Shown: one piece after another, positions 2,138 to 61,293 of the stretch
How positions within the stretch are numbered: position 1 is the first letter of the stretch
Layout of the letters: each line of letters starts with the position of its first letter
Assembly (NCBI GenBank): GCA_051362555.1
Contig: CM120644.1
Coordinates: 21,784,534 to 21,848,533, forward strand
Direction: 5' to 3'
DNA: 64,000 bases
DNA from: Lingula anatina
Lineage: Eukaryota; Animalia; Brachiopoda
Translations under genes and position numbers: made by a program
The notes under the pieces: generated by a model
Database searches by the model: none
What the model saw: the letters and a program-made list of their open reading frames with translations, nothing else
What the model was told of the DNA's origin: nothing

Positions 2138-2591
2138 AATGGATTGATGAAATGGACAGAACACGAACCCGATCGAGATAGTTTGACTTGTTTGATATCT
2201 TCCCTCTTCTTCTTATTGATTTAAAGCCTAAAACCTATTTTACGTGCAATAAACTTCAATATAAAGGCGAAATATGCGATTAAATTAAAGTATCCTGTAA
2301 ATGAAAACGATTAAGTGATATAATAGGTAAAGTGGAGAGTCCGAAAATGTGTGTGTGATTGTGTGTGTGTGTGATTGTGTGTGTGTGTGTGTGAGAGAGA
2401 GACGGAGAGAGAGAACTTAAATTTCTGCTTTAAGATTCAGTGTCTTCAGAATGTACCTGTGGTCAAACCAAGTTTAAAAACTACTGTTGATCTAAATTAT
2501 GTCAAGATGAACGTCTGATTTTATAGGCAAAGTGTGCCAGCGTAAGGAGCTCCTAGATGTCAAATAATGCAAAGCCTGGTATTACTTTCAG

Positions 2592-3539
2592 CAGAGCGGA
2601 TTGGATGATGGCGTCATTCCCGAAGAATGGCTTGAGGAAATACAAAGAAGAAAGAAACTTGTGTCCGAGGCATGCCAGAAGTATAAAACGGAAAAAACAC
2701 CTTTGACAAAAGAATGGATTGAAGAAAACGGCAGTCATCTCATCGTAGAAGACCAGTATAAAATCATATATTGCCGCGTACCTAAATCTGGGAACACAAG
2801 TTGGAAGCGCATATTGCTAGCATTGTCTGGTATTATAAACGATACTTCTATGGCTCATGGCAAAAAGGGGCTAAACCCACGTGAAGGAGTTAATAGATAT
2901 TTGCATACGTTGAATACGCTGTCGTTTTCGGAAGCAAAACAAAAACTTGAGACCCACTTGAAAGTTATGTATCTTAGGCACCCCTTAGAACGATTACTTT
3001 CTGTATATCGTAATAAGTTGGAAAGAAATCCTTGGACACATGAGGGTGTCTCTTCACAAGTGGTTCCATACGTTATGAAACACTATCGCGGTGTAGAACC
3101 CATTCTTCCCGTCGGAGTGAGCAGAAGCCGTGGACGGATATCTGGTGTCCTTCCATCTGGAGAAGAGTTCAGTTTTCCAAAAGACGAACTTCCAAGTTGG
3201 GTACCAAAGATTACATTTGAAGAATTCCTTCGTTATGTTGGTGACAATCCAAACTTTCTGAATGGTCATTGGGCGCCCCCAAACGATTTATGTCACCCAT
3301 GCGCCATTCAATATGACGTCATAGGGTATTTTGGGACAATAAGCGAAGATGCAAACAACATTTTGAAACTAGTGCATGCGTACCCAGCTTTCAAATTTCC
3401 AAATATGTACCTTAATCCAGAAACAACGTCTAATTTGGTGAATAGATATTATTCAAATGTATCAAAATCGACGTTGCAGAAAATTTGTCCAATTTACGCA
3501 CTTGATGCAGCAATGTCGGCTGCTAATTTACGTATTTAG
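2592..3539 (+). CDS. Carbohydrate sulfotransferase (Sulfotransfer_2, CHST11-like) copy A, catalytic last exon
   Basis: 5'PSB-like YCRVPKSGNTSWKR, 3'PB-like LRHPLERLLSVYRNK, and HW..LCHPC..YD motif. TTTCAG acceptor ends at 2591 (phase 0); 948-bp exon ending in TAG. The ORF-track TTG start is not the real start; upstream exons lie before the window. Confidence 0.9.
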   Translation, partial: QSGLDDGVIPEEWLEEIQRRKKLVSEACQKYKTEKTPLTKEWIEENGSHLIVEDQYKIIYCRVPKSGNTSWKRILLALSGIINDTSMAHGKKGLNPREGVNRYLHTLNTLSFSEAKQKLETHLKVMYLRHPLERLLSVYRNKLERNPWTHEGVSSQVVPYVMKHYRGVEPILPVGVSRSRGRISGVLPSGEEFSFPKDELPSWVPKITFEEFLRYVGDNPNFLNGHWAPPNDLCHPCAIQYDVIGYFGTISEDANNILKLVHAYPAFKFPNMYLNPETTSNLVNRYYSNVSKSTLQKICPIYALDAAMSAANLRI

Positions 3540-5524
3540 TTAAAGATGCATTTGAAGTCGATCTTTTGTCACAAAAGCCAACCAAATGTTACCACATCCA
3601 AATAGTGTAATTTACAGGACTACCAAAATACATTGCTTAATGTGAAAGTGATATTTGAACGTATTTTTCTGCTTGCTTTCTGTGATTTTTAGGTTACCGA
3701 AGTAGTAAGATAAGATGTTAAGTCACGGTCTTTACAAGAATAAAGTAGGTTACTGGATAGATAAGTAGCTATGTTAGATAAGATAGGTGAGATAAGCAGG
3801 TCATATTTACGATCAAAACTTATAGAAATTGCAGTTTATAGCTCTTTTTTTGTCTGATCTTGTGATTAAATCGATTTATTCTTTGGTATGTTGACATTAT
3901 TTGAGTCATTAGAAACTAATAGAAAGGGTGTAAATGCGTTACTGGGAATTCACGCTCCACAAACGTTCAGTTCAAATGTACCTTTAAACTGAGTTTGCGT
4001 TCTGTTAATACGTTATTGTAATTTAATTGTCAACCGTCCGGGGACAGAAGGCCAAGCATGGATAGAACTTCACAGCAATGCCTGCACTAACGACTGCTAT
4101 GTCTTTTTGCTAGCTTTTTGTTAATTTTTTTGCTTAATTATATAATGCTAACAGCGTAATCGCCCCCAAATTTCAGGAAAATGCTAGAATATGTACTGGG
4201 CTTCAGGTCCCTTGGAGATCTATGTCTTACACTGAAAATGTCAATATTGAAAATATGTTAACTTGAAGATGAATATCTAATCAGTCTGCTTTGCTAGTCG
4301 GGCTCTATTCTTGTCGGAGTATTACAAGAAACGCGATTTTCCTATCAGTAAAGCTCTCACAAAATAATGTTGCTGTCAATTTGATGCAATGTAATTGCAA
4401 TGTAATTGTACCAAATACCATTCAAGTTTACCTACAGTTGTATGTACCGGTATTACAGGTAGCATGGACATTCAGAAAACATCTCGTGAGACTAGATAAC
4501 ATTTTAAGTTTATAGCTAATATGTCATCAAGACATGTAATGTACAACTGGGTATTAATTGGTGGTGGGTAGGTAAGGCAATTAGAACTTAAGAACTTCGG
4601 GAAGTGGGAATAAAGCTGTACTACAAGTAACAAGGACTATGCCATTAAAAATGCTTATGTGTGAAAAGTGAAAATTCCCCCCCCCCCACACACACTAATT
4701 TGCGTAAATGTAAACTGATCATGCTCATTTTAGAAAGCAACCTGCCTCTTTACCAAACAAAACTACTCAGTAAATTTACAAACAATGATAAATAAAATAA
4801 ATATGTTTAGAAGTTATGGGGCTAACGTCACCAAAATTGTGCAAAAACCCAGAATTATCATCGTAAATATAAACCAATCATCTCGATTTTCAGAAGCAAT
4901 CTGCCTCTTTGCCAATTTAAGCAGAGCCACTTCGAAAAACTAAAGTAAAACAAAAGTACTGTATGGCAGTTATGGGACGATCGTCATATGTAGGACAGCG
5001 ACGGCGACAGACAGATCAATCAGAATATGAATAAATAAAAATTAAAATTAAAAATAAAAATAAAATAAAATAAAAATTAGATAAAAATAAAAATTAAAGT
5101 CAACCAATCCCAGGAACAGCCCAAACCCCAGGCGCACGGAAAACCCAAAGAGCCCAAATTGTCCATCCTGATTAAATATATAATTACATAAATTTCCTTC
5201 CTCAACCATGGTACATGTATAAGAGAAGATAGCAGAAATAACAAAGGCATTCCAAACTCCTGCTGCCCAAAAAAGTTAAGCAGTTCATTCTAGGTCTAAC
5301 ATTCAAAAAAAAAAAAAAAAATAATAAAAAATAAAAAAAAAAATAAAATAAAATAAAAAAAAAAGGACAGATATTTACCACAAACTCACAAACGCACAAA
5401 TAAACGCATGCGCACACGTTCACACGTCAGTTACGTAGCCAGTGTCATGTGGGGTGTTATATTAGCATTTTCATCACCAGCATGAAAGTAGTCGTTATCT
5501 CAATCGGCATATCACCTTGCCAAG

Positions 5525-7591: not shown

Positions 7592-8928
7592 AAGAGAAAG
7601 AAAGGAGATTTATATTAAGACGCGCATATATTCTTTACGTTGTTAAACGTTAGATCAATCAAGTGTTAAAACTCGAGCCCATGAGTATGAAATCAAAATG
7701 TGTCAGCGTAAGGAGCACCATAATGTCAAATAATACATGTCGACTAACGGCAGTACTTTTTATTTCTTTCAGCAGAGCGGTTTGGATGATGACGTCATTC
7801 CCGAAAAATGGCTAAAGGAAATACAAAGAAGAAAGAAACTTGTGTCCGAGGTATGCAAAAAGTATAAAATGGCAAAAATGCCTTTATGTCTCCTTGATCT
7901 AAAGGTTCAATACGATGCCGAGAAAGGAGCAATAAAGTGACAAACACAAGTATGATGTTCGAAACTTGGCCGTTGCCGGCCGCTTTTATTGTGAATCCTT
8001 ATACTAAAATGAATTAAATTTTGATGTTAAAATTAATTAATTGTGACAGTGCCAAAATACGTAATTTTTTACGCCTGAAAAGACTATTTTATATATAATT
8101 CCCAAAGAACATAGTGCAGACGTTTTAATTTGTGGGGTTGCAAAGAGGCCGAAAAGAAAAATCTAGCCAACGACCGGACGAAGCACGTCGATGTAATCTA
8201 AACTAGAGGACAAGCTAAATCGGCCTAAACGGTGGACGACAGATAAGCTGCGGCGTGCTACCCAACCCTAACTCCCTCATTTTGAGGGAGGGGGAGGTAC
8301 GCTCTTTTCCTTATGATAAACGGGCCATACAGCGAGGAGTAGAGCTCTCCATTCTGTCATCCCTAGTTAGAGAAATTTAGAATTAGAAATTTCAAGTGTG
8401 CCCGCCGGTCTATTATGAATTATGTCTACCAAAAACCAGTAACTGAGCTCCTGAAATAAAGGGTATAATGGAGATAATAAATCACTGGTCAGCGTGAATT
8501 GCTGGACCGAACAAGTTACAAAAATTGAATGGGAAATTAAAAATAAAAAGAAACGGATGAGAATCTGCATGTCTTGCTAGATCTCTGAGGGGGTGGGGGG
8601 GTGAGGTCCGCATGTCTTGCTGGACCCAACAAGTAACGTCACTTGAAGTTAAACATATAAAAAGTTAAACATATAAAAATAAAAAGAAATGGGTGGGAGA
8701 GAATCTGCATGTCTTGCTAGATCTCCGGAAAAAGGGGTGGGTATGAGGGCCGCATGTCTTGCTGGCCTTCGGCATGAAAGCGAGATTGAATGTAAAATGA
8801 TAAATGATAACTAATATAGCCTATGGACAGTGTCACTAAATGAAACTTGTGAAAGTCAGATTTGATAAATGTCACTAAACGTGCGCGGGTGAATCCTCCG
8901 TGCGAGTATATCAATGCGCTAAATAGTC

Positions 8929-9525
8929 CTATTCAAATTGTCCAGTTGCTTGGCTTGACCATAGTGTTGGAGTGCGGATGTATTTCTTGAAAGAGTCCGA
9001 GTTCCAACGACCGAGCCGTCTTATCTGAGCGTCCGACAGGTTATTCTGCACCGCCAGGGAAGCGGCTCCTATTCTGAAACTGTGTCCTTTAAAGCGCGTA
9101 GGGTCCAAGTGACAGAATCGAAGATCCCTCGCCAGCTGTTTGTTGAAGACGTCCCGATGAATGGGTGTGAAGTTCGGGTGACAGAAAAGTGGGCCTGGTG
9201 TGTCCCCCCTCAGCTTGATGTAGTGATCTAAGGCACTTACCCCGCACAAGGGATTGCTTTGAGGGCCAATAACAATGGAAAAAGGAGAGCCTTTAGTGTT
9301 ATGCTTGTAGTTTGAAATTACTAATTCGACTGACTGTTTCCCATCATGATTCGAAAAGAACTTTACGTTTTCCCGGGAGAGGGAGGGGTTGGGGGCCCCC
9401 GATCCCCTAGCTGTCATCTCGCCTATACGTAAAAACCCGTGAAAGGCTGTGAGGTACATTGCCCTGAAGAGTGACATGGTGTAGGAATTGGAAAGGGTGA
9501 GTTCCAAAGCTCTAACAAGTTTTAG
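8929..9525 (-). CDS. Tyrosine recombinase catalytic domain, N-terminally truncated
   Basis: FHGFLRIGE (R), YKHN (K), GHSFRIGAAS (HxxR), LGRW, FKKYIR (Y nucleophile). No Met start or N-terminal domain. Confidence 0.9.
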   Translation of the reverse strand, partial: LKLVRALELTLSNSYTMSLFRAMYLTAFHGFLRIGEMTARGSGAPNPSLSRENVKFFSNHDGKQSVELVISNYKHNTKGSPFSIVIGPQSNPLCGVSALDHYIKLRGDTPGPLFCHPNFTPIHRDVFNKQLARDLRFCHLDPTRFKGHSFRIGAASLAVQNNLSDAQIRRLGRWNSDSFKKYIRTPTLWSSQATGQFE

Positions 9526-11219
9526 TGAACTAAAGCTTCATTGTCGGTGAAGAGCATGACACACCTATTCCTTAACTCCGAGGCCCAAAGGTCAACTGCC
9601 GCGACAATTGGGTAAAATTCTAGCAAGGTGATATTGCAGTTTTGAAAATGCTTTGGCCAAGCCCCGAAAAACCAATTGTTCCTAAATATCGCCCCATATC
9701 CGAGGGAGGCTGCAGCATCAGTGTACAATTTCAGAGCGGGGGAGGTAAGCCATTTGAAATCAAGGAGGAATGATTTCCCGTTGTAGTCGGAAAGAAAGTT
9801 GGCCCAGGTCTCTAGATCCAGTTTGGCCTGTCTAGACAGCCGGATGAAGTGGTGGGGTTTTCTGATACCTATCGTTAGATCAATGAGTCTGCGGAGGAAG
9901 GCCCTGCCCGGTAGAACTACTGAACAGGTGAAATTCAAGAGCCCTATGAGCGATTGTAGCTGTTGTAATGTTACTTTTGCCCTACCCAGGAACTCGGATA
10001 TGAGAGACCGGCACTTTGAGACTTTATCGTCAAGTAGCCTGGCTCCCATCAGATCAGTAACGAGCTCAATACCAGCGAAAGGAAGGACTCTGCTAGGGCC
10101 AAGCGTTTTCTCGCTTGCAATAGGTACGCCTAGATCATTACAGAGGGCCAGGAAATTTTGGAGGTCCTGCTGACACTTTTCAAACGTGGGGGCTATGAAC
10201 AGAAAGTCGTCCAGAATGTGAACCATGGAGTGGGCCTTAAGTTTGTGCTCCGCAATCCATTGCAGAGAGGTACTGAACATTTCGAATATTCTACAGGACG
10301 AGGAGCATCCCATTGGTAGACGCGTGTCAAAATAATACTCATTGTTCCATGTAAACCCTAGAAGGTGATGATCGTCGGGGTGAACCATAAGAATTCTGAA
10401 AGCAGACTCCACGTCAGTCTTGGCCATCCAGGAAGATCTACCTGAGATATTGATGAGCTCTATTGCATTCTCTATAGAATGGTACTGCACGGAGGAGAAT
10501 TCCCTGTCAATGCCGTCATTAACTGACTGTCCGTGAGGAAAGGAAAGGTCGTGGATGAGCCTAAACTTGCCAGGATCTTTCTTCGGGTGGAGACCAATGG
10601 GCGATATTGCTAAATTGGGGAAAGGTTTGGAAGTAAATGGACCGGCCAACCTACCTAGTTCTAATTCAGATGACAACTTTTCATTCACCACGTCGGGCCT
10701 GTCTAGAGCTGACTTGTGGTTACGAGTAGAAGACGGGGATTGAGACCCATTGTGACCTAACTTGAAGCCGATAGTGAAGCCCGAAACAAGTTGCTTTCTT
10801 AAATCAGAAGGATAACCAGAAAGATATTTATTGAGTTTGTTGGGGTCTACTGGGGTTTTTAGGACCCTGGGGGGTAGATGGTGAGTTTCTGTTGGCCCGT
10901 GAGGGGTAGGAGGGGCGGGCAGCTGCTCTATTCTCCGATCTGGGACACTGGGACGCTGGGTGGGTACCCCCTGAGCATCTGAAACATTTGTGGTCGTACG
11001 TGCAATCCCCCCTACAGTGGTTTCCGGAGTGAAATTTGTAGCAGACCCCTTGGGGAAATTTACGAAATGGCTGCCTAGATGTGAATGACCCCCTTGGGCG
11101 AAATTGCTGGACATTGTTATTTGGGCGAGAATTGAGAAGAGCCCTGTTCCAAAGATCCCAATTAGTATCCTCCCAAGGGTCACCAGACCTTTCTTTGTTA
11201 GCCCTGAAGTTGCGGTCAT
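9522..11219 (-). CDS. pol: Reverse transcriptase-RNase H (DIRS/Ngaro type), C-terminally truncated
   Basis: KFRLIHDLS, KTDVESAF, RLPMGCSSS, HILDDFLF, LQSLIGLLNF; RNase H LYTDAA...ITLLEFYPI...FTDNEALV, then an abrupt stop before the last RNase H motifs. Confidence 0.9.
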   Translation of the reverse strand: MTATSGLTKKGLVTLGRILIGIFGTGLFSILAQITMSSNFAQGGHSHLGSHFVNFPKGSATNFTPETTVGGIARTTTNVSDAQGVPTQRPSVPDRRIEQLPAPPTPHGPTETHHLPPRVLKTPVDPNKLNKYLSGYPSDLRKQLVSGFTIGFKLGHNGSQSPSSTRNHKSALDRPDVVNEKLSSELELGRLAGPFTSKPFPNLAISPIGLHPKKDPGKFRLIHDLSFPHGQSVNDGIDREFSSVQYHSIENAIELINISGRSSWMAKTDVESAFRILMVHPDDHHLLGFTWNNEYYFDTRLPMGCSSSCRIFEMFSTSLQWIAEHKLKAHSMVHILDDFLFIAPTFEKCQQDLQNFLALCNDLGVPIASEKTLGPSRVLPFAGIELVTDLMGARLLDDKVSKCRSLISEFLGRAKVTLQQLQSLIGLLNFTCSVVLPGRAFLRRLIDLTIGIRKPHHFIRLSRQAKLDLETWANFLSDYNGKSFLLDFKWLTSPALKLYTDAAASLGYGAIFRNNWFFGAWPKHFQNCNITLLEFYPIVAAVDLWASELRNRCVMLFTDNEALVH

Positions 11220-11976
11220 AAGCTAACCAGTCCCCCCTTAGCCCTGCTAAGACCCTGATGTCTTCAGCGTATTTAAGTAAATTGGGCGCCTCCTGGGGGT
11301 GTTTAAGGGTGTACACTGACATGAAAGTGTGAAAGGCCGTTGTCCATTGGGACATGGAGGTGATCTGAGGCCTTCTACCCTGGGAGACTACCAGTGTGAT
11401 TTTACCGTGGTTGTTTTCCATGGCCAATGGGAGGGGGTCGCCGGGTTGGGGCAATTGCGCTGACTGGTCTTGGAGGAGTAGTGACATGTCGACAAACTCG
11501 TTCCCCCAAATTCGATCTTTTAATTTGTCGTCGACTAGGGCGTGTAAGGGAATGGACTTAGTTGAATACCTATTAGTCTGGGGGGATACTATACCTGTGT
11601 CCGCTGAAGGAGGAGTAGGCGGAGGGTTTTCTGGCAGATTGCGCTGGCCCGACTGAGGTGCCACCGAGTTGGCTGCCAGTGTTGCCATGGCTTGTGACAT
11701 CTCCTTCAGAATGTTGAAGATGGCCTGGTTGTCCACGGGCTGCGGGGTTGAATGTGAACTCCCAGAAGTTGAGGGTAAGGAAGTGTCCGCAGAGGAAGGT
11801 GCAGATTTACGAACAAGTTGCTTCCCCTTACTGACTCGCGGGCGTTTTTCCGATGCTGGAGAGGGGCCGGCGGAAGAAGTGCTCGCAGTAGAGGGAGTAG
11901 GGTGAGTTCTGCTTGCCCGGCGTTTGTTTGGAGTACTCTCAGGAGCTGTTGAACTTCTTGATCTCTTGGGAGGCAC
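10828..11976 (-). CDS. gag: gag-like ORF1 of YR retrotransposon
   Basis: Low-complexity S/P/T-rich N-terminus, W..YDRNFR motif, C-terminal Cys/His knuckles CYKFHSGNHCRGDCTYDHKCFRCSGGTHPASQC. Overlaps the RT ORF in another frame. Starts at GTG preceded by an acceptor-like TTTTCAG. Confidence 0.8.
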   Translation of the reverse strand: MPPKRSRSSTAPESTPNKRRASRTHPTPSTASTSSAGPSPASEKRPRVSKGKQLVRKSAPSSADTSLPSTSGSSHSTPQPVDNQAIFNILKEMSQAMATLAANSVAPQSGQRNLPENPPPTPPSADTGIVSPQTNRYSTKSIPLHALVDDKLKDRIWGNEFVDMSLLLQDQSAQLPQPGDPLPLAMENNHGKITLVVSQGRRPQITSMSQWTTAFHTFMSVYTLKHPQEAPNLLKYAEDIRVLAGLRGDWLAYDRNFRANKERSGDPWEDTNWDLWNRALLNSRPNNNVQQFRPRGSFTSRQPFRKFPQGVCYKFHSGNHCRGDCTYDHKCFRCSGGTHPASQCPRSENRAAARPSYPSRANRNSPSTPQGPKNPSRPQQTQ

Positions 11977-12850
11977 TGAAAAGTGTAATGAAGAGAGCAG
12001 CAGACAGGTGAAATTTTTTGTAAGTTCCCATGTAGTTTTTTATTACTCGGAGGAGACGGGGAAGGTGGCGGGTATCAAAATCGTACTGAGTCGAATTGAG
12101 CAGTGATCCGTTGATTGTTCTCTTGCGACTGTCGTGCGTGAGAGCAAAGTGAGAAAGAATACTATCGTACATTTCGTTAAACGCGACGGCGCGTACCTTG
12201 TGGAACACACCTGACCTAGTTCAACCTGATTGGGCAAAAATTAGTAACGAACCAAATACTCTGATTGGATAAGAAAGATTGGCCAATCACAGCCCACTGC
12301 CGATGCAGCACTGAATCCACGATTCTATGTGCAGCATTGAATCCGAGGCTCGTCAGTTCATGCAGCACTCAATCCGAGGTTTGTACAAGTATGGCAAAAT
12401 TACAATGCGAATCCCGTCGGAACTAGGTTACAATCCGTCGCCATAAAACAACGTTTGACTCAGCCGCCAAACTTCCCTTTATGTCTCCTTGATCTAAAGG
12501 TTCAATACGATGCCGAGAAAGGAGCAATAAAGTGACAAACACAAGTATGATGTTCGAAACTTGGCCGTTGCCGGCCGCTTTTATTGTGAATCCTTATACT
12601 AAAATGAATTAAATTTTGATGTTAAAATTAATTAATTGTGACAGTGCCAAAATACGTAATTTTTTACGCCTGAAAAGACTATTTTATATATAATTCCCAA
12701 AGAACATAGTGCAGACGTTTTAATTTGTGGGGTTGCAAAGAGGCCATAACCTTGGGATCGCAGAGGCCAAGGAAAACCCCACAAAGGACAAAGGAGCCTG
12801 CTGATAAGGACAGAAAGTTTCCAGATGAGTAAGTAGTGCGTAATGAGTAG

Positions 12851-13574
12851 AGGTCGGAAATGTAAAGACACAAAACGTGCCGCTCACCTAGGCGTAGCTA
12901 GGCGGACAAAAATATTACAAAAATAAGGCATGAAAAAATATGCCACTCAACCTGAAAACCAGGTCGGAAAAGTAAAGACACAAAACGTGCCACTCACTCT
13001 GACGAAGCAGAGCGGAATATAAAGACACAAAACGTGCCACTCACCTAGGCGTAGCTAGGCGGACAAAAATATTACAAAAATAAGGCATGAAAAATTATGC
13101 CACTCAACCTGGAAACCAGGTCGGAAAAGTAAAGACACAAAACGTGCCACTCACTCTGACGAAGCAGAGCGGAATGTAAAGACACAAAACGTGCCACTAA
13201 CCTAGGCGTAGCTAGGCGGACAAAAATATTACAAAAATAAGGCATGAAAAAATACGCCACTCAACCTGAAAACCAGGTCGGAAAAGTAAAGACACAAAAC
13301 GTGCCACTCACTCTGACGAAGCAGAGCGGAATATAAAGACACAAAACGTGCCACTCACCTAGGCGTAGCTAGGCGGACAAAAATATTACAAAAATAAGGC
13401 ATGAAAAAATATGCCACTCAACCTGAAAACCAGGTCGGAAAAGTAAAGACACAAAACGTGCCACTCACTCTGACGAAGCAGAGCGGAATATAAAGACACA
13501 AAACGTGCCACTCACCTAGGCGTAGCTAGGCGGACAAAAATATTACAAAAATAAGGCATGAAAAATTATGCCAC
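12851..13574. repeat. 157-bp tandem repeat (~4.5 units) built of three double-hairpin submodules, inside the retrotransposon
   Basis: AAAGACACAAAACGTGCC.CT.ACCTAGG recurs at 12864, 13021, 13178, ~13335 and 13492. Confidence 0.93.
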
Positions 13575-15810
13575 GTCGTTGCCGACTGGAGTAGGATAGA
13601 GGATAAAAGGAAGGAAAATTACCGGTGGTCCTGAAAAGGTCGGGACCTGACAAAAGGGGTAGATGCGCCTATGGGCTTGTTAGCTGATCAAAATCGTACT
13701 GAGGCGAATTGAGCAGTGATCCGTTGATTGTTCTCTTGCGACTGTCGTGCGTGAGAGCAAAGTGAGAAAGAATACTATCGTACATTTCGTTAAACGCGAC
13801 GGCGCGTACCTTGTGGAACACACCTGACCTAGTTCAACCTGATTGGGCAAAAATTAGTAACGAACCAAATACTCTGATTGGATAAGAAAGATTGGCCAAT
13901 CACAGCCCACTGCCGATGCAGCACTGAATCCACGATTCTATGTGCAGCATTGAATCCGAGGCTCGTCAGTTCATGCAGCACTCAATCCGAGGTTTGTACA
14001 AGTATGGCAAAATTACAATGCGAATCCCGTCGGAACTAGGTTACAATCCGTCGCCATAAAACAACGTTTGACTCAGCCGCCAAACTTCCCTTTAACAAAA
14101 GAATGGATTGAAAAAAATGGCCACCATCTTATCGTAGAAGACCAATATAAAATCATATATTGCCGTGTTCCTAAATCGGGGAACACAAATTGGAAGCGCT
14201 TATTACTAGCACTGTCTGGTATTATAAACGATACATCTATGGCTCATGGCAAAAAGGGGCTAAACCCAATGAATGCAGTTAAAAGATATTTGCATACGTT
14301 GGATACGCTGTCGTTTTCGGAAGCAAAACAAAAACTTAAGACCCACTTGAAAGTTATGTATCTTAGGCACCCCTTAGAACGATTACTTTCTGCATATCGT
14401 AATAAGTTGGAAAGAGATCCTTGGACGCATCATAGCGTCTCGTCGCAAGTGTTTCCCTATGTTATGAAACACTATCGCTGTGTAGAACCCATTATGGATG
14501 CCAAAGATAACATTTGAAGAATTCCTTCGTTACGTTGGTGACAATCCAAACTTTCTGAATGGTCATTGGGCGCCCCCAAACGATTTATGTCACCCATGCG
14601 TCATTCAATATGACGTCATAGGGTATTTTGGGACAATAAGCGAAGATGCAAACAACATTTTGAAACTAGTGCATGCGTACCCAGCATTCAAATTTCCAAA
14701 TGTGTACATTAATCCAGAAACAACGTCTAATTTGGTGAATAGATATTATTCAAATGTATCAAAATCGACGTTGCAGAAAATTCGTCCAATTTACGCACTT
14801 GATGCAGCAATGTCGGCTGCTAATTTACGTATTTAGTTAAAGATGCATTTGAAGTCGATCTTTTGCCACAAAAGCCAACCAAATGTTACCACATCCAAAT
14901 AGTGTAATTTACAGGACTACCAAAATACATTGCTTAATGTTAAAGTGATATTTGAACGGATTTTTCTGCTTGCTTTCTGTGATTTTAGGTTACCCAAGTA
15001 GTAAGATAAGATGTTGGGGCACGGTCTTTACAAGAATAAAGTAGGTTACTGGGTAGATAAGTAGGCAGTATGTTAGATAAGATCAGTAAGATATATTTAC
15101 GATCAAAACTTATAGAGATTGCAGTTTATAGCCCTTTTTTGTCTGATCTTGTGATTAAATCGATTTATTCCTTGGTATGTTGACATTATTTGAGTCATTA
15201 GAAACTATGCTTGCACTTACGACTGCTATGTCATTTCGCTAGCTTTTTGTTAATTTTTTTGCTTAATTATAAAATGCTAACGACATATTCGCCCTCAAAT
15301 TTTAGTAAAATGCTAGAGTTTGTACTGGGCTTCAGGTCCCTTGGAGGTCTATGTCTTACACTGAAAATGTCAATATTAAAAATATGTTAACTTGAAGATG
15401 AATATCTAATCAGTCTGCTTTGCTAGTCGGGCTCTATTTTTGTCGGAGTATTACAAGAAACACGATTTTCCTATCAGTATGTTGAAGAAAACTCACAAAA
15501 TAATGTTGCTGCCAATTTGATGCAATGTAATTGCAATGTAATTGTTCCAAATACCATTCAAGTTTATCTACAATTGTATGTACCGGTATTACAGGTAGCA
15601 TAGACATTCAGAAAACATCTCGTGAGACTAGATAACATTTTAAGTTTACAGGTAATATGTCATCAAGACATGTTATGTACAACTGGGTATTAATTGGTGG
15701 TGGGTAGGTAAGGCAATTAGAACTTAAGAACTTCGGGAAGTGGGAATAAAGTTGTACTACAAGTAACAAGGACTATGCCATTGAATATGCTTATGTGTGA
15801 AAATTGAAAA

Positions 15811-24450: not shown

Positions 24451-25426
24451 GTAAGAAATCAGTGTAAAAATACCTACATGTATGCACCAAAGTTGACAAT
24501 TTTTGCATATTGTGACCATTATACAATTAGTAGATTAGTGGGAAAAAGTCTATTATATGTATTAAAACTGTGAAATCAAATATTTCAAGTTCAACTTTAA
24601 CTGAAAATCTCTCTTGCAAATATTGATAAACAAAAATAAAAGATAAACATGTAAATTAATTTTCAATATTAATACAACGTACAAGCGATATCAATAGTAA
24701 CGATAACTAAGGCAGCATTAGGGCAAGTGCAGGCTCGAGAAGAAAATGTTTTGCTAGGGGCGGGGCCCGCGGGAAACATTTTCTTTAAGGACCTAAATTT
24801 GGCCACATTTCCCTAAAAACATAAACGCATCTTGTTATGGCATTGACAATTAGCTGTTAACATACCGAGGGTATGGGGTATGTGGCACACATACTAATTC
24901 ACCAACTGTTTTGACCAATGCGATGTGGTCTTTTTGCAAATTTCAATTAATTTCCATTCCCATTTTCGCGGAGTGGAATTTGTAGTACAATATTTTTTGT
25001 TAAAAGTATAAAAGAAATTACACAAGTCTCTGTGAGTGCTTTCACTTTGAGCCCACACTTCCATCAGAGGGTGCCTGGAATATCTATTCCAAATCAACGT
25101 CATTTATGGAAACTAGTAGTGAAACCCATGAACAAACATACATGTAGGTGTGCGCGCACACACATTTGTGTGATTGTTTGTGTGTTTGTGTGTGTGTTGT
25201 GTGTGTGTGTGTGTGTGTGTGAGAAAGAGAGAGAGAGAGAGAGAGAGAGACTTACATTACTGCATTAAGATTCAGTGTCTTCAGAATGTACCTGACGTCA
25301 AACCAAGTTTAAAAACTACGGTTGATCTAAATTATGTCAAGATAAACATCTCGTGTTATGGACAAAGTGTGCCAGCGTAAGGAGCTCCAAGATGTCAAAT
25401 AATGCAGAGCCTCTTATTACTTTCAG

Positions 25427-26374
25427 CAGAGCGGATTGGATGATGACGTCATTCCCGAAGAATGGCTTGAGGAAATACGAAGAAGAAAGAAACTTGTGTC
25501 CGAGGCATGCGAGAAGTATAAAACAGTAAAAATACCTCTGACAAAAGAATGGATTAAAGAAAACGGCGGCCATCTCATCGTAGAAGACCAGTATAAAATC
25601 ATATATTGCCGTGTACCTAAATCTGGGAACACAAGTTGGAAGCGCCTTTTGCTAGCATTGTCTGGTATTATAAACGATACTTCTGTAGCTCATGGCAAAA
25701 ACGGATTAAACCCACGTGATGCAGTTGAAAAATATTTGCATACGTTGGATACGCTGTCGCTTTCAAAAGCAAAACAAAAACTTAAGACGCACTTGAAAGT
25801 TATGTATCTTAGGCACCCCTTAGAACGATTACTTTCCGCATATCGTAATAAGTTGGAAAGAAATCCTTTGACACATGATGGTGTCTCATCGCAAGTGGTT
25901 CCCTACGTTATGAAGCACTATCGCGGTGTAGAACCCATTCTTCCTGTCAGTGTGAGCCAACGCCTTGGACGGATATCTGGTGTCTTTCCATCTGGAGAAG
26001 AGTTCAGTTTTCCAAAAGACGAACCGCCAAGTTGGGTACCAAAAATAACATTTGAAGAATTCCTTCGTTACGTTGGTGACAATCCAAACTTTCTGAATGG
26101 TCATTGGGCGCCCCCAAACGATTTATGTCACCCATGCGCCATTCCGTATGACGTCATAGGGTATTTTGGGACAATAAGCGAAGATGCTAACAATATCTTG
26201 AAACTAGTGCATGCATACCCAGCATTCAAATTTCCAAATATTTTCCTTAATCCAGAAACAACGTCTGATTTGTTGAACAAATATTATTCAACAGTATCAA
26301 AATCGACGTTGCAGAAAATTCGTCCAATTTACGCACTTGATGCAGCAATGTCAGCAGCTAATCTACGTATTTAG
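25427..26374 (+). CDS. Carbohydrate sulfotransferase copy C catalytic exon
   Basis: Intact 948-bp exon with PKSGNTSWKR, RHPLERLLSAYRNK and LCHPC motifs; TTTCAG acceptor. Confidence 0.92.
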   Translation, partial: QSGLDDDVIPEEWLEEIRRRKKLVSEACEKYKTVKIPLTKEWIKENGGHLIVEDQYKIIYCRVPKSGNTSWKRLLLALSGIINDTSVAHGKNGLNPRDAVEKYLHTLDTLSLSKAKQKLKTHLKVMYLRHPLERLLSAYRNKLERNPLTHDGVSSQVVPYVMKHYRGVEPILPVSVSQRLGRISGVFPSGEEFSFPKDEPPSWVPKITFEEFLRYVGDNPNFLNGHWAPPNDLCHPCAIPYDVIGYFGTISEDANNILKLVHAYPAFKFPNIFLNPETTSDLLNKYYSTVSKSTLQKIRPIYALDAAMSAANLRI

Positions 26375-28953
26375 TTAAAGATGAATTTTGCCACAAAGCC
26401 AACCAAATGCCACTACATCCAAATAGTGTAATTGGGAGGATTTGTTTTGCTTGCTCTCTGTGCTGTTTATAAATGGGGCAGATAAATAGGCTAGATAAGT
26501 AGGTAAAATTTAAAGAAAATTTTAATGAAGATGCAGTTAGTAGAACTTTTGTGGCTAGTCGTTTGAATTCCTTTGTTGATCCCTTGATATATTAGAATAT
26601 CAAAATACATCGCTTAACATTGCCTAAAACTAGATAATTCAACGGATTTTTTCTGCTTGCTTTCTGTGCTGTGTATAAACGGGCCATATTCTAGTAAGTA
26701 GGCTAGGTACCCTGTAAGTAGGTCAAATTTATGAAAAATTGAAAGAGAATTTAAGGTGCAGTTTATAGCTCTTTTGTGGCTGATCGTGTGATTAATTCAG
26801 TTGATCCCTTGGAATCGTACACATTATTTTAATCGTTTTATGACGCATTCAGAACAGCAAACTAACAGATCCTCGGATCAAATGTGGCCGACCCACTTGA
26901 ATATTTGTTGCGTAATCCCCAAGGGGAATCTATTCAGAGTCCAATTCGAAATTAAGCGGCAAGCTTTTTAAGTGTGTCGTCAAATTTGATCCGCGGATGC
27001 TAGTTTGCTGTATCAGCCCTTAGAAACCAGTGGGTTTTCACGTTCCACAAACGCTCAGTTCCAGTGTACCTTTAAACTGAGTTTGCGTTCTGTTAGCACG
27101 TAATGGAAATTCAATTAGATTGTCAACCATCCAGGGACAGAAGGCCAAGCATGGGGATAATTTCTGAGCTATGCATGCACTAACGACTGCTATGTCCATA
27201 TTGACGGCGATGACAATAATTTGGCGTCCTAAGGTGGGAGCAACAAAGTGGCGGGACCTATATGAGGCTTCGGGAGTTGGGCACCACGTTGGCCTCAATG
27301 TCGGCATTATTAATGGATAAATAAATACGGAATTTAAATGAACATATATCGTGTTATATATCTTAAATGAAACTGCTTTTATATTGGTGTAAAAAATTCC
27401 TGGTTTGATATAAATACTTACTAGGAAAGCTCATTGACATTTTAATTCTTTTATTTTTTCAGTGTAATCCTATGACAATGCCTGAATTGATACTAAGTCA
27501 TGAATTTTTCCAACTTTCATCAAGTTTCATCCAGATAAGATTCCGATTGGCAATATTTTAGAGTTTTAAACTGTCATTAAGATAGACGTTTGCGCAAGAG
27601 GGTTAACCACAGTTTACCATTGTCATCAACCGTTTCCACGTCTATAAGTAATTTGTTGGTGTAACAATAAATCACTACCCGCCCAAACACCGAAGATTAA
27701 TTGCTATTTACCGATGTCGGAGTGTTTTAAATTCATAGTTGGCAACACAACTGGATTCAAAAATAATTGTCCAGATAAAGGCTAAAATTTCCAGCACTTT
27801 CTCTCATTCATTTGATTTCATGCAAAAGTAAGACTAAAACTAATGGTGGTTAAGTTAATTATTTGATAGATCATTTATATTTTAAACTTCAGTTGCTCAA
27901 AACATCTAATTAAATCCATAGATTTTGTTATTAGCATCATAATTTCATAAATGCACAGCTGTATCAATGGAGATCGAAAATGTTTAATCTATTCGCTGTT
28001 ATATTTAGAAAAATTAATTATTGACCATTAAGATCTCATATTGGTCTTCCCTCTTGGGTCTAGATCCGTGAACAGTTGCTCATCGTGTTTGTTGAGGTTC
28101 ATTGTTATCCTCTCACATAATGGATTGATGAAATGGACAGATTCGCTCTGAATATGAGATACTTATATAGGTTGACTTGTCTGATGTAGTTGTTCTTTTC
28201 TTCTTCATTTAAAGTCTAAAATCCATTTGATGTTCAATAGACTTTTCAATATGAAGATAAAATATACGATTAAAGTTAAAGTAAAGGAAAATGATTAAAC
28301 AAAAAAATCTTAATTAAGTGAAAACATAGCTAATTTTATATATCAGGTAACGTGGAGAGTAAGAAAATGTAACTAGTTCAGGGCTTTAGTCTCATGGCAT
28401 TTCAAGGTGACTCTTTGAAAATGCCAATATGACAATTATGAAATTTTCACAAAGAAACCAAAACAAATCTACATTACTTCAAGAACAATAATCCAATAAA
28501 GCTGTTATATATATACAACTGATATGCTAATATTATGCACCGGCATTGCATGCAAAAGTATATCAAACCCATATATATTTAAAGCTTGCGTTTCTTTCTT
28601 TGGCTTGTACATCGTCTGCAGTGTGATGAATCCCTCCAATTGGTCAACCAGCATACACTATCCATTTTTTATTCTGCTCTAGAAAAATATAAATCACTTG
28701 CAATTGTTTGACTCCTCCTCTACTTGTTTAAATCTAGACGCCACCTGGCCGTCACTTTAAGAATATTATACTTTGTTATACGCCCTTTCAGACTGAGCGG
28801 AAACTCTGAAATCTACATGTCGTCCCTCTTAGTATAAGGAAGAACAACTCTAAATTTTGGCGGGAAAAGTGCCATAAAAAGATTTTCCTGGGGTAAACAA
28901 CGATGTTCTCATGCTAACCGATAGTAAATGAATCCGTTTTGACATTCAAAGTA

Positions 28954-34302: not shown

Positions 34303-34334
<32 letters not shown>

Positions 34335-34523
34335 CGTAGAGAGAGAACTTACATTACAGCATTAAGATTCAGTGTCTTCAGAATGTACCTGTGGTCAAAC
34401 CAAGTTTAAAAACTACGGTTGATCTAAATTATATCAAGATAAACATCTCATATTATGGACAAAGTGTGCCAGCGTAAGGAGCACCAAGATGTCAAATAAT
34501 GCAAAGCCTCTTATTACTTTCAG

Positions 34524-35471
34524 CAGAACGGATTGGATGATGACGTCATTCCAGAAGAATGGCGCGAGGAAATACGAAGGAGAAAAAAACTTGTGTCCGA
34601 GGCATGCGAGAAGTACAAATCTGTAAAAATACCTCTGACAAAAGAGTGGATTAAAGAAAACGGCGACCATCTCATCGTAGAAGACCAGTATAAAATCATA
34701 TATTGCCGCGTACCTAAATCTGGGAACACAAGTTGGAAGCGCCTTTTGCTAGCACTGTCTGGCATTATAAACGATACTTCTATGGCTCATGGCAAAAACG
34801 GATTTAACCCTCGTGATTTGGTTAAAAAATATTTGCATACGTTGGATACACTGACGTTTTCGGAAGCAAAACAAAAACTTGAGACTCACTTGAAAGTAAT
34901 GTATTTGAGACATCCTTTGGAAAGATTACTTTCTGCATACCGTAATAAGTTGGAAAGAAATCCTTTAATGCATGCCGATATCTCTTCGCAAGTGGTTCCC
35001 TACGTTATGAGACACTATCGCGGTGTAGAACCTATTCTTCCCGTCAGTGTGAGCCAAAGCCGTGGACGGATATCTGGTGTCTTTCCATCTGGAGAAGAGT
35101 TCAGTTTTCCAAAAGATGAACCGCCAAGTTGGGTACCAAAGATAACATTTGAAGAATTTCTTCGTTACGTTGGTGACAACCCAAACTTTCTTAATGGTCA
35201 CTGGGCGCCCCCAAACGATTTATGTCACCCATGTGTCATTCAATATGACGTCATAGGGTATTTTGGGACAATAAGCGAGGATGCAAACAATATCTTGAAA
35301 CTGGTACATGCGTACCCAGCATTCAAATTTCCAAATATGTTCCTTAATCCAGAAACAACGTCTAATTTGGTAAAAAGATATTATTCATCAGTATCAAAAT
35401 CGACGTTGCAGAAAATTCGTCCAATTTACGCACTTGATGCAGCAATGTCAGCAGCTAATTTACGTATTTAG
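34524..35471 (+). CDS. Carbohydrate sulfotransferase copy D catalytic exon
   Basis: Intact 948-bp exon, same PAPS-binding motifs, TTTCAG acceptor. Confidence 0.92.
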   Translation, partial: QNGLDDDVIPEEWREEIRRRKKLVSEACEKYKSVKIPLTKEWIKENGDHLIVEDQYKIIYCRVPKSGNTSWKRLLLALSGIINDTSMAHGKNGFNPRDLVKKYLHTLDTLTFSEAKQKLETHLKVMYLRHPLERLLSAYRNKLERNPLMHADISSQVVPYVMRHYRGVEPILPVSVSQSRGRISGVFPSGEEFSFPKDEPPSWVPKITFEEFLRYVGDNPNFLNGHWAPPNDLCHPCVIQYDVIGYFGTISEDANNILKLVHAYPAFKFPNMFLNPETTSNLVKRYYSSVSKSTLQKIRPIYALDAAMSAANLRI

Positions 35472-36836
35472 TTAAAGATGAAGAAGTTTTTTTGCCACAA
35501 AAGTCAACCAAATACCACTGCATCCAAATAGTGTAACTGGGAGGAATATCAAAAAACATCACTGAATATTACCTGAAAAATGATATTTGAGCAGATTTTC
35601 TGCTTGCTTTCTTTGATATAAACGTTTGATATAAACGGGGCAGATATATAGGCTAGATAAATAGGTCAAATTTAAGAAAAATTGAAAGAGAATTAAGGTG
35701 CAGTTTATAGCTCTTTTGTGGCTGATCGTGTGATTAATTCAGTTGATCCCTTGGCATTGTACACATTATTTTAGTCGTATGGCGCATTCAGAAAAGCAAA
35801 CTAACAGATCCGCGGATCAAATATGGCCGACCCACTTGAATGCTTGTTGCGTGATCTCCAAGGGGAATCTATTCCCAATCTGTGCCCAATTAGAAGTTAA
35901 GCGGCAAGCTTTTAAGTGTGTCGCAAAATTTGATCCGCGGATCTGTTAGTTTGCTGCATCAGCCCCTAGAAACCAGTGGGGATTCAAGTTCCACAACGCT
36001 CAGTTCGAATGTATCTTTAAACTGATTTTGCGTTCTGTTAGCACCTCAGAGCAATTCCTGCACTAACGGCTGCTATGTCCATATTGATGGCGATGACAAT
36101 TTACCGGTAATTTGGCGTCCTTAAGGTGGGAGCAATAAAATGGCGGGACTTAAGTAACGAGTTAAGTAACGGACTTAAAATGGCGGGACTTAACTAACGA
36201 GGCCTCATACAATTGTATGAGGCCTCGTTAGTTGGGCACCACGTTGGCCCCAATATCGGCAATATAAATAGATAAATAAATACGGAATTTAAATGAGCAT
36301 ATATCGTGTTTAATATCTAAAATGAATCTGCTTTTATTATTTGATACTAAAAGGGACGTAAAATTATTTGAAAAAAAAAAAGCAAACACACACACACTCT
36401 ATATACATGGAGACGTACATTGAGTATGGTAATCGGTAGAACGATAACAGTATATATTTGGATTATAAAGATGATTTGCCGGCATAATCACTTTTTCAGG
36501 TCTAATCTTGATAAAGGCGCAAAGAATTGATAAATTTCAGTTCTCATTCAGTAGTTGCCTGTCCTATTCATTACCAAGATCAATGCATGCTGATCAAATA
36601 TTGATTCCAGTGAATGTAGAAAACTGCCCACATTATTGAAAAGACACCGCCAACTGGCACGTGATTACTTCACTAAACATTGGTGAAAATAGTTCTTGGT
36701 GGAGGTCTTCGCTGTGGTTTTCTAATGGAATGGAAGGTCATCTCGATTCGTCACTGCATGCATCGAGACTCCTACGCACCGATTCCCCTCTCCTCCAGCA
36801 CCTGTCGGCTGCTGCGTCGTCGTCCCCGTGCACTTG

Positions 36837-44245: not shown

Positions 44246-44541
44246 CAGTTCTTACTTGTATAAATATGATAATTTTACAACACATAAGAAAAACCAATAT
44301 CTTATACAAATGTCTTTATACAGAAAAACTATAAGGAATAAAAGGGAAAACCAGTGTCTGTACAGCAGCGCTGACCTACTTCGAATGATCGCGTACCCTT
44401 CTAACGTAATCTGTTCTCCGTTTGAATACAGCGCCCGCTGAATTACTCGCAAAAGACCCGTTAAACGACCCGTTAAACGATAATAAATACATATACAGGT
44501 AATACACATCGACTAACGACAGTGCATTTTATTTCTTTCAG

Positions 44542-45489
44542 CAGGGCGGTTTAGATGATGACGTCATTCCCGAAGAATGGCTCGAGGAAATACAAAGACG
44601 AAAGAAACTTGTGTCCGAGGCATGCCAGAAGTATAAAACGGAAAAAACGCCTTTGACAAAAGAATGGATTGAAGAAAACGGCAGCCATCTCATCGTAGAA
44701 GACCAGTATAAAATCATATATTGCCGCGTACCGAAATCGGGGAACACAAACTGGAAGCGCTTATTACTAGCACTGTCTGGTTTCATAAACGATACTTCTG
44801 TAGCTCATAGGAAAAACGGATTAAGCCCAAGTGGTGTGGTTAAAGAATATTTACATACTTTGGATACTCTGTCGCTTTCAAAAGCAAAACAAAAACTTCA
44901 GACCCACTTGAAAGTAATGTATTTGAGACATCCTTTTGAAAGATTACTTTCTGCATATCGTAATAAGTTGGAAAACAATCCTTTGACACATGATGTTGTC
45001 TCATCGCAAGTGGTTCCATACGTTATGAAGCACTATCGCGGTGTAGAACCTATTCTTCCCGTCAGTGTGAGCCAACGCCTTGGACGGATATCTGGTGTCT
45101 TTCCATCAGGAGAAGAGTTCAGTTTTTCAAAAGACGAACCGCCAAGTTGGATACCAAAGATAACATTTGAAGAATTCCTTCGTTACGTTGGTGACAACCC
45201 AAACTTTCTGAATGGTCATTGGGCGCCCCCAAACGATTTATGTCACCCATGCGTCATTCAATATGACGTCATAGGGTATTTTGGGACAATAAGCGAAGAT
45301 GCAAACAACATTTTGAAACTAGTGCATGCGTACCCAGCATTCAAATTTCCAAATATGTTCTTTAATCCAGAAACAACGTCTAATTTGGTGAATAAATATT
45401 ATTCATCAGTTTCAAAATCGACGTTGCAGAAAATTCGTCCAATTTATGCACTTGATGCAGCAATGTCGGCTTCTAAGTTACGTATTTAG
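44542..45489 (+). CDS. Carbohydrate sulfotransferase copy E catalytic exon
   Basis: Intact 948-bp exon starting QGGLDDDVIP; PKSGNTNWKR, RHPFERLLSAYRNK. Confidence 0.92.
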   Translation, partial: QGGLDDDVIPEEWLEEIQRRKKLVSEACQKYKTEKTPLTKEWIEENGSHLIVEDQYKIIYCRVPKSGNTNWKRLLLALSGFINDTSVAHRKNGLSPSGVVKEYLHTLDTLSLSKAKQKLQTHLKVMYLRHPFERLLSAYRNKLENNPLTHDVVSSQVVPYVMKHYRGVEPILPVSVSQRLGRISGVFPSGEEFSFSKDEPPSWIPKITFEEFLRYVGDNPNFLNGHWAPPNDLCHPCVIQYDVIGYFGTISEDANNILKLVHAYPAFKFPNMFFNPETTSNLVNKYYSSVSKSTLQKIRPIYALDAAMSASKLRI

Positions 45490-45724
45490 TTGAAGATGCG
45501 TTTGAAGTCTATCTTTTGCCACAAAAGCCAACCAAATGTTACCACATCCGAAAAGTGTAATTTACAAGTGTTGAGGATATTTTCGAAGATAAAAAAACAG
45601 CAAAAGCGGGAATTAAATAAATAAATAATAATTTTAATATGACGTAAAAAACTGTACAAAAATGTAGAATAAAAATAGATATAAAATGGAAAAATTGATA
45701 TTGTTAAGTCACTGAAATAGACTA

Positions 45725-57909: not shown

Positions 57910-58597
57910 TATATTTACGATCAAAATTTATAGAAATCTAATATTAATTTGTAGTCATTTTTTTTTTGTTTATTAAAAGCGTGTATAGGAGGACATGTAT
58001 ACAAATAATTATAAGAAGCGTAATAGCATTCTTAAACATCTCGTTTAAATCTTCTAAAATTAACACATCATCCATATTAAAATGTCAGAGGACATCTATT
58101 ACTAGTCTAGCTGGGAAAATATGTCCGACTAGGACATCGATACCTGTCTGCAGGACTTAGAATACTAAGTAACGGGTGTCCACTGGACATTAAATCCCAG
58201 GAAATTATGTCCGAGGACATGCGTTCATAGGAATGTCCTATGAACATGCATTACGGCGGACATCCATTCCCTTCAGCTCTCCATCCGTCGACATTTGCAG
58301 CCCTCATCGTGTATGTTGAGGTTCCGTGTGATCCACTCACAACGGATTGATGAAATGGACAAAACACAAACCCGATCGAGATACTAATATAGTTGGACTT
58401 GTTTGATATCTTCCATCTTCTTCTTATTGATTTAAAGCCTAAAATCTATTTTCCGTGCAATAAATTTCAATATAAAGGTGAAATATGCGATTAAATTAAA
58501 GTAAATGAAAACGATTAAGTGATATAATAGGTAAAGTGGAGAGTACGAAAATGTGTGTGTGATTGTGTGTGTGTGTGTGTGTGTGTGTGAGTGTGAT

Positions 58598-58634
<37 letters not shown>

Positions 58635-58800
58635 CGGAGAGAGAGAGAACTTACATTACTGCATTTAGTGGTCAAACCAAGTTTAAAAACTACTGTTGAT
58701 CTAAATTATGTCCAGATGAACACCTGATTTTATAGGCAAAGTGTGCCAGCGTAAGGAGCTCCTAGATGTCAAATAATGCAAAGCCTGTTATTACTTTCAG

Positions 58801-59748
58801 CAGAGCGGATTGGATGATGACGTCATTCCCGAAGAATGGCTTGAGGAAATACAAAGAAGAAAAAAACTTGTGTCCGAGGCATGCCAGAAGTATAAAACGG
58901 AAAAAACGCCTTTGACAAAAGAATGGATTGAAGAAATTGGCAGTCATCTCATTGTAGAAGACCAGTATAAAATCATATATTGCCGCGTACCTAAATCTGG
59001 GAACACAAGTTGGAAGCGCTTATTGCTAGCATTGTCTGGTATTATAAACGATACTTCTATGGCTCATGGCAAAAAGGGGCTAAACCCACGTGAAGGAGTT
59101 AATAGATATTTGCATACGTTGAATACGCTGTCGTTTTCGGAAGCAAAACAAAAACTTGAGACCCACTTTAAAGTTATGTATCTTAGGCACCCCTTAGAAC
59201 GATTACTTTCTGCATATCGTAATAAGTTGGAAAGAAATCCTTGGACGCATGTGAGTGTCTCATCGCAAGTGGTTCCCTACGTTATGAAGCACTATCGCGG
59301 TGTAGAACCCATTCTTCCCGTCAGTGTTAGCCAACGTCGTGGACGGATATCTGGCGTCTTTCCATCTGGAGAAGAGTTCAGTTTTCCAAAAGACGAACTT
59401 CCAAGTTGGGTACCAAAGATAACATTTGAAGAATTCCTTCGTTACGTTGGTGACAATCCAAACTTTCTGAATGGTCATTGGGCGCCCCCAAACGATTTAT
59501 GTCACCCATGCGTCATTCAATATGACGTCATAGGGTATTTTGGGACAATAAGCGAAGATGCAAACAACATTTTGAAACTAGTGCATGCGTACCCAGCATT
59601 CAAATTTCCAAATGTGTACATTAATCTAGAAACAACGTCTAATTTGGTGAATAGATATTATTCAACAGTATCAAATTCTACGTTGCAGAAAATTCGTCCA
59701 ATTTACGCACTTGATGCAGCAATGTCGGCTTCTAAGTTACGTATTTAG
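58801..59748 (+). CDS. Carbohydrate sulfotransferase copy F catalytic exon
   Basis: Intact 948-bp exon, very close to copy A in its 5' half. Confidence 0.92.
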   Translation, partial: QSGLDDDVIPEEWLEEIQRRKKLVSEACQKYKTEKTPLTKEWIEEIGSHLIVEDQYKIIYCRVPKSGNTSWKRLLLALSGIINDTSMAHGKKGLNPREGVNRYLHTLNTLSFSEAKQKLETHFKVMYLRHPLERLLSAYRNKLERNPWTHVSVSSQVVPYVMKHYRGVEPILPVSVSQRRGRISGVFPSGEEFSFPKDELPSWVPKITFEEFLRYVGDNPNFLNGHWAPPNDLCHPCVIQYDVIGYFGTISEDANNILKLVHAYPAFKFPNVYINLETTSNLVNRYYSTVSNSTLQKIRPIYALDAAMSASKLRI

Positions 59749-60911: not shown

Positions 60912-60950
<39 letters not shown>

Positions 60951-61293
60951 TTAGCGATTATGTAAACTGATCATGCTAATTTTAGAAAACAACCTGCCTC
61001 TTTACCAAACAAAGCCACTCAATAAATTTATTAAAAAAAAAAAAAAATAAATAAGTTATGCAAAAACCCGTAAATATAAACCAATCATGTCGATTTTCGA
61101 AAGCAACCTGCCTCTTTACCAATTTAAGCAGAGCCACTCAGAAAATTTAAAGTAAAACAAAAGTACGGTTTGGCAGTTATGGGACGATCGTCATGTGTAG
61201 GACAACGACGGCAACCGCGACGTCTCGGCCAGACAGACCAATCAGAATATAGACAGACACTTACAATGTCTGTACATAAAAATTAAAATCAAC

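Follow-up and report, generated by a model that had tools for sequence, protein, structure and literature searches.

The stretch of Lingula anatina DNA analyzed here (64,000 nucleotides, hereafter the window) was found to carry what is probably a young, internally deleted copy of a Ngaro-type retrotransposon, in which the junction B1|A2 lies inside a spliced-out region and whose family likely separates protein-making RNA from copied RNA by this splice. Self-comparison of the window gave the order A1-array-B1A2-gag-RT/RH-YR-B2 on the coding (minus) strand, in a unit of 6.2 kb. The terminal repeat A1 (13687..14094, minus strand, as are all element features below) begins with the core TAAAGG, carries CCAAT boxes at 13900-13842 and the likely promoter, and the internal repeat A2 (12074..12481) is likely a second promoter; both are 408 bp long and differ at one position (13704 vs 12091). 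The internal repeat B1 (12476..12745) and the terminal repeat B2 (7881..8150) are identical, with 270 bp each and an AATAAA signal at 12585-12580 and 7990-7985, respectively. The hexamer TAAAGG is the 6-bp overlap of B1 and A2 (12476..12481), where the tyrosine recombinase is predicted to cross over, and it is also present at both outer ends of the element, including the end of B2. A tandem array of 4.6 copies of a 157-bp unit with 97% matches (12855..13574) lies between A1 and B1, within the spliced-out region; its unit forms a hairpin (folding z = -4.1 against 200 dinucleotide shuffles), and three units contain the 5' splice-site-like motif AG|GTGAGT. Immediately behind A2 there is a C-rich tract (12058..12072).

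Over 7.9-14.1 kb all the repeats were direct, and no inverted terminal repeats with an internal complementary region (ICR) were detected. A sequence-only reading had placed the B1A2 junction 5' of the ORFs and described the repeats as almost identical, and the repeat map bore out both points. Three features described below had escaped that reading: the internal deletion at 9525, the missing intron-like stretch at 13677/13676 and the splicing of array, B1 and A2 out of transcripts. The layout is that of one Ngaro-type element with the junction in front of the genes; this full order was seen in this assembly alone, no read or contig spanning A (408 bp) plus both its neighbours, and for other copies the order is inferred from reads shorter than the element. 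Contig depth, which is no copy number, was higher over A, B and the array than over the ORFs.

Three ORFs were recognized downstream of the junction. The gag-like ORF (open frame 12039-10828, gag 10828..11976) has C-terminal Cys/His knuckles and GTG as its genomic first codon, and a RefSeq protein labelled Lingula anatina is 99% identical to it. It is followed by the RT/RNase H ORF (9522..11222; Pfam RVT_1, E 4e-11), which ends about 80 residues before its homologues do, and by the catalytic half of a tyrosine recombinase (8929..9537) with the R, HxxR, W and Y motifs present. In the Pfam search no family was assigned to this last piece and gag gave just one weak unrelated match; the recombinase piece is 49% identical to a Phage_integrase-bearing protein, and its alignment with a full-length relative begins at residue 151 of the latter, about 150 N-terminal residues being missing. 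Both truncations meet at one point (9524..9525), where run X3 has about 578 extra bases, in a contig of 4165 nt, and where RNA reads show loose ends on either side. In comparison with relatives, the gap of about 580 bp in the window copy corresponds to the end of RNase H and the start of the recombinase (its N-terminal part). Lacking these parts of both proteins, the internally deleted copy is predicted to be dead.

Other shortened forms of the family were also detected. A deletion derivative (9014-11660) without most of gag, RT and YR was present in three runs from three studies (X1, X2, X6). Splicing was ruled out as the cause of the gaps at 9525 and 9014-11660, the ends of which are not GT..AG. 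Additionally, a mini-form of about 300 bp, in which the first 47 bp of A are joined to B from position 27 (14048/12435 to 12719/8124), was found in X1, X2 (with 8 letters between) and X6, and resembles solo AB repeats or SIRE.

The element was assigned on its domains and repeats, its RT matches being unnamed or "uncharacterized". As in Ngaro elements, gag, RT/RNase H and YR are co-oriented with YR last, and the split direct repeats A1, B1, A2 and B2 include an adjacent B1A2 pair. No Pfam methyltransferase match was obtained among 23 RT ORFs, which fits Ngaro and not PAT or DIRS1; neither the methyltransferase (MT) domain after RNase H of PAT-like elements nor the inverted terminal repeats with ICR of DIRS1-like elements were found. 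The short core common to junction and target in tyrosine recombinase retrotransposons is represented by TAAAGG. In Ngaro elements the internal repeats are described downstream of YR (in the part consulted of PMC4157794), and here B1A2 lies upstream of gag; for this reason, the element is filed as a Ngaro-type variant and not as a canonical member.

The transcription of the family was followed in RNA reads mapped from four runs (X11, X12, X14, X17) of nine, using 6-25% of the reads of each run. First mates were nearly all on the plus strand in X11, X12 and X14, which for libraries of the usual type makes the RNA that of the coding strand. In both A copies the 5' half had almost no coverage; depth rose in the 3' half of A1 and dropped inside B2, near its AATAAA. 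Reads were observed over 12016-12091, and across 12260-12469 the depth was 0-1.1.

A major joint from 13677 to 11975 skips the array, B1 and A2. X11 contributed 17 reads with 13 starts and X12 contributed 12 reads with 6 starts, every one of them on the sense strand. No such reads were present in X14 or X17, the raw-read support thus coming from two samples of one study. The same joint was held by contigs of X3 and was not found in the contigs of X1, X2 and X6 among the matches listed. Run X3, labelled "DNA?", gave no coverage of the host flanks and probably consists of RNA; if it were DNA, the joined form would also exist as DNA. The donor sits 10 nt behind A1, and the acceptor (11976..11993), a pyrimidine tract followed by CAG, lies at the gag start. 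The unspliced stretch before the acceptor was covered to a depth of 19-24 in X11 and 11 in X12, about as many reads as cross the splice.

Further joints were recorded in the same libraries. In X14 (98 reads), six reads join a foreign upstream piece, likely a host exon spliced into a copy, to the gag acceptor (11977). A gag-internal donor CAG|GTATAG (11595/11594) was joined to two sequences absent from the window (20 and 8 reads in X11, 6 in X12), and these joints are likely chimeric transcripts from other loci. Six loose-end motifs were searched for in the window and none was found there.

The splice completes the gag start codon. The last base of exon 1, an A, and the TG with which exon 2 opens form an in-frame ATG in place of the genomic GTG, and the spliced gag begins M-P-P-K-R, the gag of relatives mostly beginning M-P-P-K/R. 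On unspliced RNA the first codon is GTG, and the next in-frame ATG lies 92 codons further on, at 11700. The protein XP_013387368 (RefSeq, a second Lingula copy with the same A-C-tract-gag adjacency) has V at the gag start position, and XP_013382405 (a 65% relative) has M. The leader of 1.6 kb contains 11 ATGs, and the spliced mRNA bypasses these together with the B1 poly(A) signal. In the spliced RNA an ATG within A (13783..13785) lies 36 codons before the gag start, in the gag frame and with no stop between; its use would require transcripts that begin farther upstream. In the RefSeq model of the second copy, gag is opened at that ATG, in the A repeat adjoining the ORF. Since this ATG exists and unspliced reads are about equal to spliced ones, RNA started in A2 may be a second source of Gag for which the splice is not needed.

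At the end of exon 1 (13676..13677), where loose ends were found in X1, X3, X11 and X12 besides the joint 11975-13677, other copies contain what appears to be a single extra stretch, at least 293 nt long, with GTAAGT at its beginning and TTTTCAG at its end, these two ends being the parts that were observed. The loose ends at 13676 read AA|GTAAGT and TTTTCAG|G, and the donor side of the window reads AA|GC. The window copy is without exactly the GT..AG stretch, and hence without the donor. Because this absence is exact, the copy probably arose by reverse transcription of an RNA in which the nearer acceptor had been used; an exact intron loss of this kind is natural evidence for an RNA intermediate.

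Relatives were collected as well: 80 of 543 metagenome stretches were kept, 12 came from genome contigs, and none of 95 viral stretches was retained. They are mostly short-read contigs, in which repeats can collapse; none has both repeat pairs resolved plus flanks, and their paths fit either order. The A end of relatives continues in two ways, either through a donor-like site into a long leader and gag, or through a C-rich tract into non-coding sequence. A donor-like AG|GCAAGT lies 9-13 nt behind A in two families, with a weaker AG|GT in a third. An acceptor-like site at most 20 nt from the gag start was found for 14 of 22 gag starts (not all independent, three being one family and one not a true start), whereas one was present at 54 of the 340 ATGs in leaders and at 1476 of all 7858 ATGs (16-19%). 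An acceptor-like site just before the gag ATG together with a long AT-rich leader is common in marine-invertebrate Ngaro-type elements, among them L001, L003, L008, L011, L014, L019, L022, L028, L041, L082, L083 and others, which suggests a clade-wide 5' intron. The B|A junction cores of L003, L014, L025, L048 and L069 are TAAA-like, like that of the window.

The C-tract motif recurs behind the A end in L014, L069 and L087, where non-coding sequence follows; in the window, gag follows. In L069 and L087 the tract stands behind YR, B and A, its canonical place. Scanned over 64 loci, the motif had matches in eight, against one match in 411 kb of shuffled sequence, and five of these eight matches lay in ORFs or elsewhere, away from a shown A end. 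L087 (6320-7228) is a circular contig with a period of 7137 bp, in which a 441-bp repeat occurs twice, 27 bp apart, with the C-tract as spacer; its record is titled as a bacterial MAG and is likely host DNA.

The donor unit precedes the C-tract unit in the window, the order expected of canonical copies, but the ORFs are in the second unit. Motifs shared with relatives suggest that the arrangement arose when a block made of B, A and the C-tract moved into the 5' leader intron, rather than by permutation or by co-integration of a satellite; a permuted canonical copy would show the reverse unit order. The C-tract keeps its position next to the internal junction when the genes are relocated, which makes it a candidate cis element. 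Its segment 12073-12052 can pair with 12490-12463, spanning the B|A junction with the core left out of the helix, at -28.3 kcal/mol; an equally good value was reached by 5 of 100 query shuffles and 0 of 500 junction shuffles. This pairing was dropped as a part of the mechanism, since none of four relatives showed it.

The insertion site was defined at the nucleotide level. The element splits a sulfotransferase-like exon at a shared TAAAGG core, the left part lying at 7776..7886 and the right part at 14095..14836 (both plus strand; Pfam Sulfotransfer_2 in the latter), and five paralogues in the window are uninterrupted at this point. Contigs from three of the four public contig runs (X1, X2, X6) join 7880 directly to 14089, six letters fitting both sides, so that one copy of the hexamer is present at the empty site and TAAAGG at both element ends and at the junction. 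This joint fits recombination between the B|A junction and a host hexamer of the same sequence, a mode proposed for DIRS elements in the part consulted of PMC7192593. The empty site in three of four runs indicates that the insertion is polymorphic or young, in agreement with the recent insertion claimed from sequence alone. That claim had been drawn from the near-identity of the repeats, which is real and by itself dates little, because such repeats would be expected to be re-copied at each jump.

The right part of the host exon carries a 92-bp frameshifting deletion relative to the paralogue at about 58.8-59.7 kb. At least six carbohydrate-sulfotransferase-like exon paralogues (Pfam Sulfotransfer_2, about 88-92% identical) are present in the window, at 2138-4807, 7609-7886 + 14089-15207, 25167-26440, 34303-35617, 44529-45566 and 58341-61057. 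Other flanks adjoin the A start in X3, X6 and X17 (14093-14098 / 12480-12485), and further insertion sites of the family exist.

Several other origins of this arrangement were weighed. An ordinary A-ORFs-BA-spacer-B circle has two identical B|A junctions and could have integrated through the other one, both orders being, as a matter of logic, permutations of one circle. Transcripts beginning in A directly before gag, the RefSeq model that opens there, and contig L014, which reads A-spacer-B-A-leader-gag, are all compatible with such a permutation. Nevertheless, it predicts the C-tract unit first and the donor unit with the ORFs second, the opposite of what the window shows; for the splice, which completes the gag ATG, one RNA must carry the donor unit ahead of gag, and L014 may be a collapsed assembly. 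We therefore regard permutation as unlikely. The sequence-only reading had offered a tandem co-integrate as its alternative, in which a coding A-ORFs-B unit is joined to a parasitic non-coding A-array-B unit with common ends. That reading gains from the short derivatives in X1, X2 and X6 (the joint of A 47 to B 27 and the 9014-11660 deletion), from array reads that differ from the window at several sites, from the fall of RNA depth between B1 and A2, and from the published SIRE of VIPER and solo AB repeats. It did not hold up against the splice data: the donor that completes the gag start belongs to the upstream unit, at the position of the leader donor of relatives, direct repeats also occur in 4 of 14 leaders of relatives, and no stand-alone A-array-B copy came to light. 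A co-integrate is accordingly judged quite improbable.

The absence of the GT..AG stretch could also mean that other copies gained a donor-bearing insertion at 13676 and that the window copy lost no intron, a reading to which the observation of only the ends of the extra stretch lends itself. Those ends are exact GT..AG consensus, with nothing duplicated or lost around them, and relatives have their donor at the same distance behind A, which leaves an insertion gain very unlikely. Finally, collapsed repeats might have been ordered wrongly in the assembly, A and B exceeding the short-read length and no listed piece spanning the stretch. The outer ends, however, rejoin the host exon exactly as in the five paralogues and the empty allele, A1 and A2 differ by one base, and in RNA the unit on the array side is spliced to gag; a misassembly is thus highly improbable. 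Movement of the B-A-C-tract block into the leader intron remains the preferred explanation.

From these data a life cycle can be proposed for the family. Transcription would start in the 3' half of A1 and end in B2, in line with the observed strand and depth. The observed splice, from the donor 10 nt behind A1 to the gag acceptor, would then take out the array, B1 together with the poly(A) signal that it contains, and A2, and make the in-frame ATG. The resulting mRNA would lack the B|A junction and be unable to rebuild full ends. By analogy with the ICR model of DIRS-1, RNA retaining B1|A2 would serve as template, its junction supplying the missing start of A and end of B so that a circle could form; RNA spanning the junction was barely seen (depth 0-1.1 at 12260-12469, in the 5' half of A2). 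The recombinase would likely cross over at TAAAGG with a matching host hexamer, consistent with the hexamer and the empty site, and the window copy itself would likely stem from an RNA spliced at the nearer acceptor, losing the GT..AG stretch and the donor. The donor-like motifs of the array might protect B1 from cleavage, a role that U1 has in EVD.

Taken together, these steps would describe a Ngaro-type lineage in which the replication junction moved into a 5' intron and the gag start codon was split, splicing acting as a switch between mRNA and template and the donor motifs of the array holding off the B1 poly(A) signal. This joint reading is put forward tentatively, with somewhat less than even confidence. 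The partition that it includes, in which spliced RNA would give Gag and not be circularized and unspliced RNA would be copied and give no full Gag, is possible and is held just as guardedly.

The comparison with known systems was limited to the parts consulted of the sources cited here and below. The usual Ngaro order is A1-[ORFs]-B1A2B2 (PMC8547959, PMC9210276, PMC3783388). Like Ngaro elements, the window copy has gag, RT/RNase H and YR on one strand, no methyltransferase or integrase, and two pairs of split direct repeats with a B|A junction; unlike them, it has this junction 5' of gag within a spliced region, and not downstream of YR. The mirrored order proposed from sequence alone therefore stands relative to this usual order, but not as a wholly new architecture. 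An amphioxus Ngaro-like element beside VCBP2/5, reported in 2008, has a distinct arrangement with a repeat duplication "found upstream" of GAG (PMC2632668, Additional file 9). With 225-bp and 338-bp repeats and a label layout that can be read as A-B-A-ORFs-B, it resembles the window copy, a likeness by description only; the account consulted is a descriptive note without splicing, start codon, target core or mechanism. A curation guide also states that other repeat configurations exist. The 5' junction thus has at least this precedent in the literature consulted, which in part refutes the sequence-only reading by the standard that it had set itself, and entries of Repbase and Dfam may already hold the layout.

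The place of the internal repeat also differs among PAT, Kangaroo and SpPat1 (PMC4157794). These elements and TOC share with the window copy the split direct repeats and a lineage-dependent place of the internal repeat, but carry a methyltransferase domain and have this repeat between MT and YR or near the 3' end. DIRS-1 likewise uses an internal copy of its terminal junction to restore ends from a sub-genomic transcript and integrates at a short shared core, and its ICR is required for retrotransposition; it differs in its inverted repeats, its MT domain and an ICR near the 3' end (PMC7192593). The proposed separation of RNA pools by splicing into translation and reverse transcription has counterparts in the Ty1/copia elements BARE1 and EVD (PMC3735527, PMC5580714), and in EVD U1 binding was linked to a suppressed internal poly(A) site (PMC5580714). 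These are LTR elements with a DDE integrase in which the splice yields a Gag-only RNA, whereas the splice in the window removes a replication repeat and completes a start codon. The literature consulted yielded no account of a tyrosine recombinase element in which the junction is spliced over or the gag ATG is divided between exons. The 5' layout has precedent, and the splice-based logic is apparently undescribed.

These results bear on how such elements are annotated and on how they replicate. Tools expecting A-ORFs-BAB clip elements of this kind, and gene models misplace the gag start. The replication model for split direct repeats is carried over from DIRS-1, and the literature search returned no experimental test of it in split-repeat elements. 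The Lingula family is transcribed and polymorphic, and its two RNA classes differ exactly by the B|A junction; the model therefore predicts which RNA is copied. If the proposed cycle is true, the intron-less window copy would represent a natural retrotransposition-indicator event for a split-repeat element.
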